The notes under the pieces are model-generated. The model saw nothing but the letters and a program-made list of their open reading frames with translations. It was not told the origin of the DNA and searched no databases. A stretch of DNA of 48,194 nucleotides from a virus (lineage: Duplodnaviria > Caudoviricetes). The stretch's first letter is position 1. Every line of letters starts with the position of its first letter. Made by a program: the position numbers and the translations under genes. Shown in pieces: positions 9,821-37,176 of the stretch. The stretch lies in IMG/VR virus record IMGVR_UViG_3300022670_000218, positions 1 through 48,194 of that record. One strand, written 5' to 3'.

Positions 9821-11682
9821 TGGGACTGACTAATTTAATATTCAAGCTTAACGGCAAAACAGGACACGAGCCGGACAACTGGGAGAGTATAAAGCTGTCT
9901 GCATCATTTGTGTTTACGGACACCAATGATAACCGGATATCTGAGTCTGTGCAACCTAGTATAAATACTGATTTGTTTGTGTTCTCCAATGAGTCCGCAC
10001 GGGAATTTATTAAATACAGAAAAGCGGGGTTAACTGGAGGGCCGGGATTATTCGAAGGTATGCCATTTAGCATAGAGGCAAGTAACGACACGACAATAAA
10101 GGCTTTTAACGGATTCTTTGATTTTACCAAGGGTTACAGGGAAATAAGCCCCGTAGAGGTAGAGTGCAGAGTGAAAAAACTTGACGGTCTAAATTCATTC
10201 AACGATATTGCGCGGGTCAATACGTTTGAATTCCTTGAAAGTGAAGGGGTGTTTAAATTAAGTGACTACATAAACATTCCTTTTATAGTCGAGCCTTTGG
10301 ATGCAGAGGCTCAGATTGCAATGCTTGAACTTACTTTGGTTATGCTGATAATTGAAGGGGCAAGGCTTGTAAAGGAGATATTAAAAGATATAGGTATTAT
10401 TGTAGGTCTGGCAAGCACTGTAACCGGAATACCTGGATCTCTTGTATTAGCAGTACTTACACTTATACTTGACATTGCTTTTCTTATAGTTCTTGTATTC
10501 CAAATTGGAAAACTTGTAATAAGAATGGTTGCACTATTAGCACCTCCTGTGCAATTCAACAGGGGAATGTTTATTAAGGATCTAATTGAGAAAGCTGTTA
10601 ATCATTTTGGGTATGATTTTGAAACCGGGATAGATGAATTATCCATTGTTGCATACATGCCCGCAAAAGGATCTGGTGAGACAAAAATATTCAGGGGTGT
10701 ACCAAAGATAGGAGAACCTGGACAGACTGTTGCAAGACTTATTAATATAGCCCTTAAGATTGGCAACGCAAGGATTGGAATAATTGATAATACCGTACAT
10801 CTAAGAACCGATGCAGATCCGTTTTGGATTAAAAACAGTACGTACCAATTACCGGATGTAGGCAATATTGACGCGGACGCAATAACGTTGCAAAGCGAGG
10901 AATTTGTGCCTAATACGGATGAAATGTTTGGCTCAACAATAATCAGCCTCACGTCCGATCAGTCAGACCAGTGGACGCTATCAGATGATGCCGGAATAGA
11001 TTCACAGGCTATTAGGACTCCGAAATTCGTTGTTGATAAAACCGGAAAGAAGGTTTTGATAAAAGGATTGCAGGAAATCGTAATTCCTTGCGCTCCTGCA
11101 AGCCGTAAGTCAACACTTAATGAAGCTGAGCAACTTCTTTCTCAAATACAGAAGAAATTAGCCCCACTGATGGAGCAGGTTAATAAGATATACGGAAATC
11201 AATTGGGAGCCAATTTAAGCAATGTTACGGGTATACCACCATTTGTTCAGACCGTGGTTAATTACCTTAGCAATGACCGTATAGGAGCGGTAAGAATTAG
11301 TTCAAAGAGTTACAGCACACCAAAACTCGTTGTACTGGAAGACGTTTCTGAAACTTTAAAACCTGATTATAGGATTCCTCAGAACCATAGGGATTTATTC
11401 AGCGCATTAACCCTTTATAACAAGTATTATATAAGCGATTCATTCGCTAATGTTCATCCTGGAACAAGACAAAGAAGACTATTCAGAGGCAGGACTATAC
11501 CGTTTGTATTTTCTGATTTTTTAAAAGTAATAGAAAATTCTTATTTTGCGACAAATAAGGGGCAACGTGCTAAGATTGAGAAGTTAGAATGGGAGTTAGA
11601 CAAGGATGTTGCAACTGTTGACTATTGGATTGAAGAGCAGTATACGAACAATATAAAGGAACTTGTAATCAGCACGACATGA
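9820..11682 (+). CDS. tail tip / baseplate hub-like protein
   Basis: 620 aa directly after tape measure; long internal hydrophobic stretch. Confidence 0.55.
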   Translation: MGLTNLIFKLNGKTGHEPDNWESIKLSASFVFTDTNDNRISESVQPSINTDLFVFSNESAREFIKYRKAGLTGGPGLFEGMPFSIEASNDTTIKAFNGFFDFTKGYREISPVEVECRVKKLDGLNSFNDIARVNTFEFLESEGVFKLSDYINIPFIVEPLDAEAQIAMLELTLVMLIIEGARLVKEILKDIGIIVGLASTVTGIPGSLVLAVLTLILDIAFLIVLVFQIGKLVIRMVALLAPPVQFNRGMFIKDLIEKAVNHFGYDFETGIDELSIVAYMPAKGSGETKIFRGVPKIGEPGQTVARLINIALKIGNARIGIIDNTVHLRTDADPFWIKNSTYQLPDVGNIDADAITLQSEEFVPNTDEMFGSTIISLTSDQSDQWTLSDDAGIDSQAIRTPKFVVDKTGKKVLIKGLQEIVIPCAPASRKSTLNEAEQLLSQIQKKLAPLMEQVNKIYGNQLGANLSNVTGIPPFVQTVVNYLSNDRIGAVRISSKSYSTPKLVVLEDVSETLKPDYRIPQNHRDLFSALTLYNKYYISDSFANVHPGTRQRRLFRGRTIPFVFSDFLKVIENSYFATNKGQRAKIEKLEWELDKDVATVDYWIEEQYTNNIKELVISTT

Positions 11683-20756: not shown

Positions 20757-20969
20757 ATGAACAAACAACTATTAGAAAACCGGATCAATATATTCAACGA
20801 TGCTTACAAGGTGGGTGATAAAGTTGAGGTGATGAATACCCTGGACGGTGATGAAACCTTTGTTGATGAAATAAAGCATCCTGCAACCATCATGGGAGGG
20901 CATACAGCAATGGCATGGCTAAAGGATAAGGGTAGTTATGACCTGACATTTGTAAAAGGGAAAGCCTGA
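20757..20969 (+). CDS. hypothetical protein
   Basis: 70 aa. Confidence 0.55.
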   Translation: MNKQLLENRINIFNDAYKVGDKVEVMNTLDGDETFVDEIKHPATIMGGHTAMAWLKDKGSYDLTFVKGKA

Positions 20970-21008
20970 TATTTGGAATTCCCCTTAATTATCGCTTAGT
21001 TTGTAATC

Positions 21009-21124
21009 ACATAATTGCAAACCCGACCAAGGTAACAGCAAGAACTTATTTAAAAATCTCCTCTCGGAGTGGGTTACCTTTCAAACACCTTGGTCGGATT
21101 GTGGTAACCCTTTTTACACATTTT
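21009..21124 (+). ncRNA. structured leader RNA, copy 1 (5' 11-mer / hairpin-loop pairing plus U-tail)
   Basis: Homologous to 26299-26425 with compensatory changes; promoter-like TTTG-N20-TTAGTTTG upstream. Confidence 0.7.
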
Positions 21125-21381
21125 GGGGTCAATCAAAAGAAAACTTTAACCGTAAATGGTTATTGGATCGGGTACTTTCCTGTATCGTGTATCATGGTAT
21201 AGGGCTACAAACTTAGCGATGGAAGTACTAGCGCTTGGGTGTAATTCCCGAAGTCATGACGTTGCCGATGGCTCATCGGGAGATTGTTATTGATGTAGTT
21301 AGCTTTGGTAACTTTAGTTAACTACGTCACTCTGAAAGCCTCCGGTCTATCAATAGATTGTTTAACTTAAAGATTGATAAT

Positions 21382-24784: not shown

Positions 24785-25195
24785 ATGAAATACGACTACA
24801 TAATAGGAATTGACCCTGGGGTAAATACAGGTATAGCTGTTTGGGATGTTGTGAATAAAAAAATAACAGCTGTAGGAAGTATGAAAATACATGAAGCCCT
24901 AGAAATAGCATCTATTTATAAAGGATGCTATTTCCGTGTAGAAGACGCTCGTAAACGTAAGTGGTACGGCAATGATTCAGTTGCTAAGAAACAAGGTGCC
25001 GGCAGTATCAAAAGAGACTGTAAAATTTGGGAGGACTTCTTGAACGATAAGAAGTTTAATTTCGAAATGATTCACCCGGTTAAAGGAGGAACAAAACTAA
25101 AAGCACTGGCCTTTAAAAAGCTTACAGGATGGACTAAGCAAACCAACTCCCATGGCAGGGACGCGGCAATACTCGTATATAAATTTAACAAGTAA
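24785..25195 (+). CDS. RuvC-like Holliday junction resolvase
   Basis: IIGIDPGVNTGIAVWD, VED and terminal H.RDA acidic motifs. Confidence 0.75.
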   Translation: MKYDYIIGIDPGVNTGIAVWDVVNKKITAVGSMKIHEALEIASIYKGCYFRVEDARKRKWYGNDSVAKKQGAGSIKRDCKIWEDFLNDKKFNFEMIHPVKGGTKLKALAFKKLTGWTKQTNSHGRDAAILVYKFNK

Positions 25196-25205
25196 TAACA
25201 CGACT

Positions 25206-25496
25206 ATGACAACACAGGAATTAAAAGACAGGTGGTATAAGATCCGAATAGAAGAAAGTAAAAAAGCAAGAACCGGAACTGGGGGAGCTGTCTGTGTAGA
25301 CGATGAGTTTGAATCAGCCGTTAGGTTTGCCAATGAATTTTACCAGAGCAAAATAGACGCTGTTACGAAAGAGGTTTCAAAAGAAGCTGACAGACGCTAT
25401 CCTATTGAGTCCGAAGGATTCCTTTCTTATAATTCGAGTGCCAATGAGGGTTTTACCGAATGTTTTAATTGGTTAAAAGAAAAACTAAAGCAGTAA
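25206..25496 (+). CDS. hypothetical protein (paralogue of next gene)
   Basis: Shares SKIDAVT and EKLKQ* with 25501-25782. Confidence 0.55.
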   Translation: MTTQELKDRWYKIRIEESKKARTGTGGAVCVDDEFESAVRFANEFYQSKIDAVTKEVSKEADRRYPIESEGFLSYNSSANEGFTECFNWLKEKLKQ

Positions 25497-25789
25497 GACT
25501 ATGAAAACCACACACGAAGTATTTAAGGAAGTATTAAAAGAACTTGGTTTTGACGGGTTTAAACCGGATCAGATGACTAATTCTGATTACTGGTTATGTA
25601 GCAACACGGCGATGAAGAGATTCGCAGAAGCCTACCACAATAGCAAAATAGACGCTGTTACGGAAGAAGAGATACATGTGGCCTGTGAACAGAGGAAATA
25701 CAGTATTACATACAACTCAGGACATCCAGAAGATGTTTTTTACATGGGTGTTAAATGGCGTGAAGAAAAACTAAAGCAGTAAGACTATG
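25347..25789 (+). repeat. two direct-repeat pairs (21 bp and 27 bp)
   Basis: AGCAAAATAGACGCTGTTACG at 25347 and 25642; AAGAAAAACTAAAGCAGTAAGACTATG at 25477 and 25763. Confidence 0.9.
25501..25782 (+). CDS. hypothetical protein (paralogue of previous gene)
   Basis: 93 aa. Confidence 0.55.
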   Translation: MKTTHEVFKEVLKELGFDGFKPDQMTNSDYWLCSNTAMKRFAEAYHNSKIDAVTEEEIHVACEQRKYSITYNSGHPEDVFYMGVKWREEKLKQ

Positions 25790-25869: not shown

Positions 25870-26274
25870 ATGAAAGCTATATTCATAAAAACACTGGGAG
25901 GACTCAGGCCGGTAGACGACTGCAAAGCCTACAATCTTTTGAAGGTAGGAGAACAGACCGAACTGGATATTAAGACACCGCGTAACATCCGGTTCCATAA
26001 TAAGTTTTTTGCTCTTATAAATCTGGCATTCGTCAATCAGGAATTATACGTAAAACAAGACGATCTAAGAGAAGATTTAATCATAGCGGCCGGATTCTAT
26101 ACCACAAGGAAAAATCATATATCAGAGGCAGTTAAACTGGTAGCTGATAGCATTTCCTTCGCAAAGATGGATGATATAGAATTTGGAGAAGTTTACAACA
26201 GGGTTTTGGATCAGGTTTGGAGTATGTTGGGAGGTGAAAAACAGGATATTATCGATGAACTTTTGCGTTTTTGA
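25870..26274 (+). CDS. DUF1367 / NinB-like protein
   Basis: PRNIRFHNKFFALINLAF, AAGFY, SISFAKMDDIEFGEVY motifs. Confidence 0.75.
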   Translation: MKAIFIKTLGGLRPVDDCKAYNLLKVGEQTELDIKTPRNIRFHNKFFALINLAFVNQELYVKQDDLREDLIIAAGFYTTRKNHISEAVKLVADSISFAKMDDIEFGEVYNRVLDQVWSMLGGEKQDIIDELLRF

Positions 26275-26298
26275 TATATTATACGTTACTTTACAGTT

Positions 26299-26425
26299 AC
26301 ATAATTGCAAACACCTCCGACAGGAACTAGCAAAAAGAACTTATTGAAAAATCCAGATCACACTGGTGGGTTATCGAATCTAAAACTGTCGGAGGTTTAG
26401 CGATAACCCCTTTTTCTACATTTTC
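26299..26425 (+). ncRNA. structured leader RNA, copy 2
   Basis: Homologous to 21009-21124; ACCTCCGACAG / CTGTCGGAGGT pairing; GGGTTATCG / CGATAACCC stem plus U-tail. Confidence 0.7.
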
Positions 26426-26681
26426 CTGTGGGTGCTATTTAGGGTATAAAGAAAAGTACAAGAACAGCCGTTTGGTGGAGCTATCGAGGGAAGGACTACG
26501 GGCACGGAAACAAGGGCAACGCATTAGACAAGATAAAAAATATAAGACGTGACAACGAAAGACTAGCGCGTTTCAGGCGGGAACCTGATAAACATTGACG
26601 GCATCCGACAAACTCAACGGAGAACGTTTACAGGTGGTTAACTACCATTTTAAACACCTTCTAAATCTAACAAAGAATGTT

Positions 26682-31241: not shown

Positions 31242-31512
31242 CACCGATCAGACGGAACGGTGCCGGAGTACTTAACCTGCTCCGGAGGAATTGAAGAGTA
31301 AACAGTTAATGTGAATGATTTTAATCATATAGAGACGCTCTTACTAGCATGTTGGCATTACAGAGGTGTAGCCGTAAAATAACAATTACCGTTTAACAAT
31401 TCACCTTGGAGCGAAAAGCGAAAACTTTTAAACTAGTGTACACGAAAACTCATGCTTTACATTAACTGTTTTTAAATTAAGAGAGTATAGGCAATTGGCC
31501 TGTACCCTTTAT

Positions 31513-31595
31513 GCCGGAGTGGCTGAATTACAAGCGAGGAAACAGGGGTAAAATATATCTGACACCTTTATGAATCTTAATTGATTCCTCCGGCA
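31513..31595 (+). ncRNA. degenerate tRNA-like element (Leu/Ser-like ends)
   Basis: GCCGGAG/CTCCGGC acceptor stem and TGGCTGAATT D-arm start; no canonical T-loop or anticodon arm. Confidence 0.35.
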
Positions 31596-32097
31596 CTAAA
31601 CCATAACTGTATGAGCTGTGGTAATGAAATAAAGCGTGTCTAAAGAGTGAAGTAAAACGTAACTAACTAATGACGCTACATAGTTCCTATTTAGGATTGA
31701 GGAATCTGTTTAGAATAGATAAATCAATTACTTAGGGTAGTGCACTCACACGTTTTAACATTGAAATAAAGAACCATCCGCTTAACGCAGACAGTGGCAA
31801 GGATACTCTATTATTAGAGGTGACCGCAGGAAGGAAAGGGGATTATAATTCCTCATTAGCAGCCTGATATTGTTATCACAATCACTCCAAGTAGTGGTTA
31901 GTCTGTTGTTAAGGTAATTGTTTGATTAAATCCCTTGAAACCGATATAGGTAAAAGGTGTGTATTAAGTAGTGATTTGTGTTGATCTACGAATTGCCTTA
32001 TTGTTTATGAAAATAATTATGCACTTGGGCCGGATGATTCTTTTGTGAAATACCAGTTGTAAACAAATAGTTGACAACTGAATTGAAATACAGTCTA

Positions 32098-32220
32098 AAG
32101 CAGATAGCTCAATCGGCAGAGCTCGTGACGTTAATCGCGGTAACCCTGTGTGGGTATGTAAGAGGTGGAATTGATCACCATGGGTAGCATATGGTATAGG
32201 TTCGAATCCTGTTCTGCTAA
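32098..32220 (+). ncRNA. tRNA-Asn-like RNA with 6-nt anticodon loop and ~55-nt variable-region insertion
   Basis: AGCAGA/TCTGCT acceptor, TAGCTCAATCGGCAGAGC D arm, CGTGA-cgttaa-TCGCG, ATAGG-TTCGAAT-CCTGT T arm. Confidence 0.6.
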
Positions 32221-32250: not shown

Positions 32251-32276
32251 ATCCCCGGGCAACAGTGCCCGGGGAT
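32251..32276. terminator. strong GC hairpin ending the ncRNA block
   Basis: ATCCCCGGGCA-acag-TGCCCGGGGAT, 11 bp; no clear U-tail. Confidence 0.45.
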
Positions 32277-32316
32277 AATTAAAAGTACACTAGTGCAGTG
32301 CACTAGTTAATTAAGA

Positions 32317-35877: not shown

Positions 35878-36129
35878 ATGAAACTTAAATTATCATGGAT
35901 TCCTACAGTTGAATCTGAAATACAATTAAAATTTGAAACACTCTACCATGAAATACTATCCATAAGCGATGATAAGGAAATGACTGAAAGAATAGTAAAA
36001 TATTCTAAATCATACCCTGATCAAATAAAATTCATGAAATACGCCAAACATGAATTGCTAAAAGGTAATAACCTTATACCTCCAACAACTTTGGAAGGTA
36101 TTCCAATGCAACCGGGTCTCGATCCTTGA
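35878..36129 (+). CDS. hypothetical protein
   Basis: 83 aa, convergent overlap with Bro-N gene. Confidence 0.4.
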   Translation: MKLKLSWIPTVESEIQLKFETLYHEILSISDDKEMTERIVKYSKSYPDQIKFMKYAKHELLKGNNLIPPTTLEGIPMQPGLDP

Positions 36130-36817
36130 AATACTTTTGTGCTCTATTTGGCATCCAATCATCATCTACATACTCAATGAATAGAGGCAAGAGACTATTT
36201 TTATACTGCCTAACCTCTGTCTCGAATCCATTTGGAAATATATGCAAGTACTTTTTATAATCTTCTGATATTTCAGGGTGTTCATCCCTCAGATACTTGG
36301 CGAATAGCTTGCCGACACTATTGTCCGGCCTTATCTCCTTACCGTCAAAGGCTTTTTCAGCTATTTCATGACCAACTCCCCAAAACCTGCCGTAAAGCCT
36401 AATATAAAGTTCGCTAATGACTGAGAAGTATCCTTTATCGGTACGATCCCAATTGTCATTAAATCGGACTACAAATTTATGGCTACCTGCAATGTATACG
36501 CCTTTCTTCCTGATGGATGGTATAACCTCTTTTGTGACCCATTTTCTGAATTGCTTGGCTTCAGGTTTATTGCTTGTGAATATTAATGAGTACAATCCGC
36601 TCTCTGAAACAATGGTTTTATTCTGGTTTCCGGAGGATGTCGGTAATAATGACACCCCCTTCTCATCATCATCTAAGCGGGTTACTGCCTGCCTTGAGTT
36701 CTTTATGTCTAGAACCTTACAAACCTCGTTTGCAACGAACCATATTTCTCCATCTATCTCTAATGTAGTCAGGTTGTCCATGTTCTCATATTTAAATATC
36801 TGCGTATTCATAGCCAT
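36074..36817 (-). CDS. Bro-N domain protein with BstA-like C-terminal domain
   Basis: Bro-N: WFVANEVCKVL..VSESGLYSLIFTSNKPEAKQFRKWVTKEVIPSIRKKG; C-terminus GYFSV..PDNSVG..Y.H.FP..KYF..RDP. Confidence 0.8.
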   Translation of the reverse strand: MAMNTQIFKYENMDNLTTLEIDGEIWFVANEVCKVLDIKNSRQAVTRLDDDEKGVSLLPTSSGNQNKTIVSESGLYSLIFTSNKPEAKQFRKWVTKEVIPSIRKKGVYIAGSHKFVVRFNDNWDRTDKGYFSVISELYIRLYGRFWGVGHEIAEKAFDGKEIRPDNSVGKLFAKYLRDEHPEISEDYKKYLHIFPNGFETEVRQYKNSLLPLFIEYVDDDWMPNRAQKYFKDRDPVALEYLPKLLEV

Positions 36818-37110: not shown

Positions 37111-37176
37111 CAATGACCAATAGTTCATTTTTTTACATTATTTCAATGACCAATAGGTCATTATTGCGTATATTTG
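37111..37176. promoter_or_regulatory. two palindromic operators and a rightward promoter
   Basis: CAATGACCAATAG(T/G)TCATT at 37111 and 37144; TATATTTG at 37169. Confidence 0.7.

Follow-up and report, generated by a model that had tools for sequence, protein, structure and literature searches.

The locus considered here raises the question of why two sites within the early region of a single phage genome should each carry a short segment (termed the key) whose exact complement (the lock) lies inside the loop of a terminator-like hairpin further downstream, and why the paired sequences should differ between the two sites while the surrounding scaffold does not. The window analyzed, that is, the whole stretch of 48,194 bp, corresponds to an entire marine virus genome. 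A first-pass annotation had described the arrangement at one site (copy 1) and had noted the same scaffold, with different paired sequences, at 26299 (copy 2); upon re-reading the sequence, every one of the copy 1 features was found where it had been placed, and the second scaffold is indeed present (Table 1). As argued below, the element is a real structured leader RNA occurring in two diverged copies, which constitute an unusual subfamily of an uncatalogued class of Bacteroidota-phage leaders.

To judge from its genes, the phage is a siphovirus of Bacteroidota type: its structural genes resemble those of B40-8 and of Croceibacter phages; the portal matches (44/44) are all in Bacteroidota phages; the terminase is 36-40% identical to those of Bacteroides, Parabacteroides and Porphyromonas phages; and a relative of the capsid is present in an uncultured Winogradskyella. 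The early region, which encodes HTH, RecT, RuvC-like, NinB, HNH and anti-repressor proteins, contains both copies of the element, each beginning just past a stop codon; the upstream neighbors are an ORF at 20757-20969 (copy 1) and a ninB-like gene at 25870-26274 (copy 2). No integrase was found in a PHROGs scan of the 75 ORFs of the genome.

Several other features of this genome are recorded in their own right. An anti-repressor-like gene (36074-36817, minus strand) has an HTH-looking reading frame upstream of it, and a divergent promoter-like site, TATATTTG, occurs in its upstream region near 37169. Two tandem paralogous ORFs (25152-25782) have in common a 31-nt and a 42-nt repeat, spaced 286-295 nt apart. 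A non-coding stretch of 856 nt (31242-32097), which folds better than its shuffles (z = -3.85) and has no Rfam match, lies directly 5' of a tRNA-like gene (32098-32220), its size and position being reminiscent of large phage ncRNAs that adjoin tRNAs. The tRNA-like gene has an expanded anticodon region of about 60 nt (Rfam score, 35 bits), and a similarly expanded tRNA is present in the closest relative of this phage (L372, 6128-6231); past the gene are two adjacent near-perfect palindromes (32251-32307), with arms of 11 bp and of 8-9 bp.

Table 1. Features of the two copies of the leader element (positions within the 48,194-bp window)
Feature	Position	Strand	Description
Copy 1 promoter-like site	20972-21004	+	TTTG (20972-75), 21 nt, then TAGTTTGT (20997-21004; TAnnTTGY box)
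Copy 1 element	21009-21124	+	Read from the sequence
Conserved 5' block ACATAATTGCAAAC	21009-21022	+	Identical in copies 1 and 2
Key 1 (11 nt)	21023-21033	+	Exact complement of 21087-97
Conserved linker AGCAA..GAACTTATT(T/G)AAAAAT	21037-21057	+	
Small hairpin P2 (CTCC/GGAG), 4 bp	21058-21069	+	3/4 pairs differ between copies, still paired
Terminator-like hairpin and U5	21071-21115	+	Stem of 8 bp (21071-78/21103-10); U-run from 21111
Lock 1, in terminator loop	21087-21097	+	Exact complement of key 1
Further non-coding leader, copy 1	21125-21381	+	257 nt; ends at ATG 21382
Copy 2 promoter-like site	26262-26294	+	TTTG (26262-65), 21 nt, then TACTTTAC (26287-94)
Copy 2 element	26299-26424	+	Directly after the ninB-like gene
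Key 2	26313-26323	+	
Copy 2 P2 hairpin	26353-26366	+	
Copy 2 terminator-like stem	26368-76/26401-09	+	
Lock 2	26386-26396	+	
Copy 2 U5	26411-26415	+	
Further non-coding leader, copy 2	26425-26681	+	257 nt; ends at ATG 26682

In both copies the promoter box ends 5 nt before the element begins, and the spacing between the TTTG and the box is equal as well; the copy 1 box matches TAnnTTGY exactly (the word described there earlier, TTAGTTTG, occupies 20996-21003), and that of copy 2 does so with one mismatch. Because boxes of the TAnnTTTG and TAnnTTGY (SM5) types sit at -12 to -5 in F. psychrophilum, according to the promoter data in PMC9723704, transcription is predicted to start at 21009 and at 26299; that is, in both copies the +1 would be the first A of the common 5' block. 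Around the key there is only a weak hairpin of 4 bp (P1), in which the predicted partners are AUUGC (21014-18) and GCAA. The terminator loop comprises 24 nt in each copy; the copy 1 hairpin, which was not picked up by a scan for short-loop terminators, folds by itself at -13.8 kcal/mol. No conserved reading frame runs across the element, and a relaxed ARAGORN scan yielded noise only. Judged by eye, neither a resemblance between the 5' block and a tmRNA resume site nor one between downstream words and ribozyme cores holds up. A nut/boxA site was likewise rejected: compared by eye with the boxA-like words found in Bacteroidota rrn leaders and spacers, GTTC(T/A)TTGA(A/C)A, the phage block agrees at 7-8 of 11 positions and does not have the GTTC core.

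After both copies come exactly 257 non-coding nucleotides and then a small Cys-rich ORF. The first of these ORFs encodes a 115-aa phage protein with 12 relatives and no Pfam match, and the second an 80-aa protein of no family; the next ATG thus lies 284-285 nt past the lock in either case. The intervening stretch is strongly folded after copy 1 (z = -4.5) and folds at the level of its shuffles after copy 2 (z = 0). Homology between the two stretches, which stood out against shuffles (5/500) but was not significant against other windows of the genome, was not accepted.

The complementarity between key and lock is not matched in shuffled controls: a key followed by a hairpin whose loop contains its complement occurs at two sites in the 48-kb genome and at none in 10 block-shuffled genomes, and for neither copy was an 11-nt complement reached in 5000 shuffles of the loop. 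Folding z-scores for copies 1 and 2 are -3.0 and -4.0 on the plus strand and -2.3 and -1.7 on the minus strand. When the two copies are aligned, all 44 pair cells hold (22 pairs in each of 2 copies), and 11 of the 22 pairs have changed on both sides (7/11 in key:lock, 3/4 in P2 and 1/7 in the terminator), in a comparison of two sequences whose alignment was fitted to the structure with the keys in register behind a common AAAC; the word CCGAC is present in both keys, in a shifted register. The cognate key:lock duplexes are predicted at -19.6 (copy 1) and -19.9 (copy 2) kcal/mol versus -8.1 and -7.7 kcal/mol for the cross pairs, and similarly weak cross-pairing is predicted in five other within-genome pairs of class members. 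Copy 1 is also present, letter for letter, on a single 37.7-kb contig from a marine-sediment run; this run may be the source of the record, so that the match does not count as independent support.

A model derived from copy 1 recovers copy 2 (E about 5e-12) and nothing further. A covariance model of both copies gave no significant match in 100 loci (1.66 Mb), the best being in the closest relative (E = 1.7, not significant), and none in 150 Bacteroidota genomes. Chance matches only, lacking a key and lock, came from exact-pattern scans, which returned 3, 18, 68 and 41 loci from IMG/VR, 56 from JGI metagenomes and 39 from GTDB genomes; a BLAST search of copy 1 against cultured phages likewise returned chance matches only, and a search of 50 related virus records allowing one mismatch found no subfamily member. 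A weak third profile match within the genome itself (36056-36136) was rejected, inasmuch as it lies in the final part of the anti-repressor ORF and is without the architecture; pairing of key 2 there (with two G-U pairs) was taken as chance, a better partial site existing elsewhere. Since no further member of the exact subfamily was found, its links to a wider class are architectural.

Nor does the element belong to a named Rfam family, as had been surmised: Rfam 15 yields the tRNA only for the whole window, two chance matches for the element region (to E = 10), and nothing except a tRNA for the loci with class members. The class is not described in the available text of a mostly open-access literature, including the motif catalogues PMC2864571, PMC5737381, PMC8040213 and PMC10690425. 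The last of these tabulates unnamed candidates that precede NUMOD4-HNH and Bro/Rha genes; the candidates are flagged as non-terminators, and their hosts, where given, are not Bacteroidota; by these table rows, rather than by alignments, some anonymous overlap with the class may exist.

To look for the wider class, 59 capsid relatives, many of them extended to whole records (about 2.25 Mb), were scanned for architecture rather than for letters. The architecture (a promoter, a key, a terminator whose loop contains the complement of that key, and a U-run) recurs, with unrelated sequences, directly after Bacteroidota promoter boxes. A TAnnTTTG box lies 3-20 nt before the key in 10 of 68 architecture matches, as against 1 of 58 in a control using parallel, non-pairing complements; the same test gives 1/88 and 0/88 for enterobacterial phage loci. 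The enrichment is weaker when both box types are counted at 3-25 nt (13/68 versus 5/58). With the first set removed, a tightened scan of the relatives returned nine matches (one being another match read on the opposite strand, and two looking doubtful) versus none in the control; in five more cultured phages it returned two versus none.

In the closest relative, whose capsid is 90% identical, there are two members, one of which heads a NUMOD4-HNH-AP2 gene. Three homologous HNH-AP2 leaders keep all 66 of their pair cells, with two-sided changes at 5 of 8 key:lock pairs (0/500 shuffles) and at 2 of 14 terminator pairs; the first-pass annotation had inferred a Bacteroidota-phage pseudoknot or attenuator family with switchable specificity, and this much is borne out, the architecture both recurring and covarying in relatives and the keys being predicted not to cross-pair. 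Convincing members were found in five cultured Bacteroidota phages out of the 10 whose records were scanned, four of these 10 being covered over their first 48-50 kb only: in B40-8, before rha (L471, 28411-28490); in the temperate LoVEphage, which has two, one of them between a cI-like gene and the early operon; in the Cellulophaga baltica phage phi19:1, with its key at 10373, heading an operon with a primase/helicase; in P12002L, before a replication protein gene; and in Flavobacterium phage 6H, upstream of a putative tail gene (L554, around 7943 on the minus strand), with an 18-bp key:lock. The lock loop of the B40-8 rha leader, UUGGCGG, contains the 5'-UUGGCG-3' named in the title of a ColIb-P9 Inc RNA paper, a word not common to the two copies described here.

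Across the class, whose members were partly hand-picked and are in some cases related to each other, key:lock pairing extends over 7-18 bp, the keys are unrelated, and the genes downstream encode HNH-AP2, Rha, replication protein, RNase H and helicase-methylase. The distance from lock to U-run is 8-22 nt in 18 of the 19 hand-picked members (18 being measurable). Most members other than the two copies have a start codon within about 50 nt and no other obvious promoter. In cell genomes the class does not generally head genes of the NUMOD4, ORF6N or Rha families: the architecture was matched at none of 30 NUMOD4 loci and, doubtfully, at one of 46 ORF6N/Rha loci.

What might such a leader do? The favored reading, with a probability of roughly one half, is that each copy forms the 5'-terminal part of a transcript starting at an internal early promoter, and that it acts as a two-state transcription attenuator, in which key:lock pairing would block the terminator. 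From this perspective, the lock would clear the polymerase some 13 nt ahead of the U-run and would pair with the key (11 bp), AACUUA (21043-48) would pair with UGGGUU (21070-75) in the 5' arm of the terminator, and AUUGC (21014-18) with the start of the 3' arm (21101-05); because both arms would then be tied up by two conserved helices, transcription would continue into the early genes that follow. If, on the other hand, something else engaged the key (the weak 5' hairpin, a protein or a second RNA), or if the key were too slow to pair, then the terminator would form and an RNA of about 105-120 nt would be released. The letters of key and lock would be free to drift, since only their pairing would matter, and different keys may insulate several such leaders within one genome.

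Folding calculations are consistent with this scheme. Nested folds containing key:lock are predicted at -29.4 and -31.8 kcal/mol (copies 1 and 2) versus -23.2 and -26.3 kcal/mol with the terminator enforced, in an energy model (ViennaRNA) that leaves out the pseudoknot of terminator plus key:lock, which may be the most stable state. With polymerase at the U-run and a footprint of 14 nt assumed, the RNA that has emerged is predicted to form key:lock with a probability of 0.99 and to have the terminator 5' arm paired at 0.91-0.96. Two base changes between the copies in the 3'-arm segment both keep its pairing with the invariant AUUGC; indeed, the invariance of the AACUUA and AUUGC blocks would be explained by such alternative pairing with the terminator arms, as predicted from two sequences and from invariant letters. 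The U-tract is U5 only. In silico, a promoter, mutually exclusive folds, a U-run and a downstream gene, by which an attenuator with an intrinsic terminator is recognized, are all predicted. The predicted fold, however, is an always-on one, which would need an input.

The geometry of the favored cis attenuator or antiterminator is that of the guanidine-IV riboswitch (GGAM-1/mepA), though without the conserved ligand-binding loop bases of the latter. In that riboswitch (PMC11611296, PMC7736828), base-pairing of the terminator loop is in competition with the stem being completed during transcription, and gives read-through; here too, at the sequence level, an upstream segment is complementary to a terminator loop. 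Other readings may be set against this one.

It is possible, though on the whole unlikely, that the element is a self-made trans regulator of the P4 CI or IsrK kind, in which the terminated short RNA binds the key of newly made cognate transcripts and forces their termination; cleavage in the AU-rich linker would free the short RNA of its own key, giving a burst of expression that is then turned off and a means of sensing copy number or superinfection. Such a regulator would supply the missing input and would explain the variable addresses: the keys are hypervariable and predicted to be mutually non-pairing within one genome, the linkers are 61-83% AT, the downstream genes are of dose-sensitive types, and the LoVEphage member next to the cI-like gene precedes an early operon. 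There is precedent in P4 CI (seqA/seqB/seqC) and Gifsy-1 IsrK (PMC4825925); these, like P1/P7 C4, resemble the element in being promoter-proximal phage leaders with short, variable complementary sites; premature termination (predicted here) ahead of regulatory early genes, such as rha in B40-8, is shared as well, as is, for CI and C4, an upstream seqA-like site complementary to an RNA loop. Unlike CI and C4, however, the element has no second downstream target and no cloverleaf or Rfam match, and its lock lies inside the terminator loop itself; c4 motifs are given as proteobacterial in Table 1 of PMC2864571.

The analogy with P4 CI and P1 C4 that was drawn at the outset holds as a resemblance but not as regards a seqC-like site, none of which rises above background: 42/148 and 19/148 random windows match the lock equally well in pairing, and the longest downstream repeat of the key spans 4-7 nt in all but one of the 19 members and 0 in that one (a 7-nt repeat, at about 26604, occurs for copy 2 only). 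A short RNA that carries its own key, moreover, should pair with itself, which argues against action in trans. A bolder form of the idea, which can be put forward only tentatively, is a protein-free addressable RNA code, whereby the short RNA would silence in trans only those leaders having the same address, early module by early module; this, if true, would provide for autoregulation of each module and for sequence-specific sensing of superinfection or copy number, and would be re-addressable by paired mutations.

A doubtful alternative is that termination is constant and the product a stand-alone small RNA of about 110 nt, in which key:lock would close a long H-type pseudoknot and protect both ends, and which would have a job of its own, such as serving as a protein decoy by means of the invariant single-stranded blocks. 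The unit from promoter to terminator is self-contained, the distance to the next ATG in both copies is in keeping with this, and the invariant blocks and constant 24-nt loop would suit a fixed three-dimensional shape. The closely placed start codons of most other members, for which no other promoter is obvious, speak against it, as does the fact that the invariant blocks are accounted for by alternative pairing with the terminator arms.

Countertranscript control of the pT181 or IncI type, in which a promoter further downstream would produce an antisense RNA that rivals the key in pairing to the lock loop, is improbable. As in the IncI/IncB/IncK rep leader and in pT181, a hairpin loop pairs in cis with a distant complement, and the letters of the loop set specificity. 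In plasmids, incompatibility is set by changes in the antisense loop (PMC10724649). The element differs in that the partner is upstream and the hairpin terminator-like. A conserved A-run would give a minus-strand U-run after P2, and an opposite-strand -7-like box lies 10-130 nt past the lock in 10 of the 19 first-set members versus a background of about 22% (P about 0.003). Yet this signal failed to replicate: the box is present in 1 of the 11 members found afterwards, is absent in copy 2 and in 3/3 HNH-AP2 homologues, and is scattered in position over 21-117 nt, leaving no reproducible antisense promoter.

Equally hard to credit is a translational switch resembling the repZ pseudoknot, in which key:lock would open the hairpin's 3' arm for ribosome loading; an ATG does lie 9-49 nt past the lock in many class members, but in both copies the next ORF of at least 50 aa starts 284-285 nt away, and reading the two copies reveals no common short ORF. 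A small-molecule riboswitch of guanidine-IV type is more improbable still despite the shared topology of an upstream segment paired with a terminator loop: the loop nucleotides vary freely here (7 of 11 key:lock pairs differ between the copies), whereas the ligand pocket of guanidine-IV needs highly conserved ones; there is no Rfam match; and the downstream genes are unrelated phage genes, Cys-rich ORFs in the present case rather than the guanidine-export genes of the sugE/mepA type. By the features tested, therefore, the element is a member of neither the guanidine-IV nor the CI/C4 family. Chance, or the scar of a DNA inversion or duplication, would fit the lack of a third copy in exact-pattern searches but is so strongly disfavored by independent covariation in two sets (the two copies and the HNH-AP2 leaders), along with the 0/5000 shuffles per copy and the promoter-linked enrichment of the architecture, as to be negligible.

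Because only the pairing is conserved, catalogues based on sequence would miss a class of this kind. Its presence in the cultured phages B40-8, phi19:1, P12002L, 6H and LoVEphage makes it directly testable; it bears on whether terminator-loop pairing alone, without a ligand, antiterminates, a point left open for guanidine-IV; and it may offer orthogonal RNA switches for engineering Bacteroidota. Gene control is poorly described in the phages of these hosts, which are major marine and gut bacteria, and a widespread leader RNA of the sort proposed here would represent a new layer of control over their replication, Rha and homing-nuclease genes.
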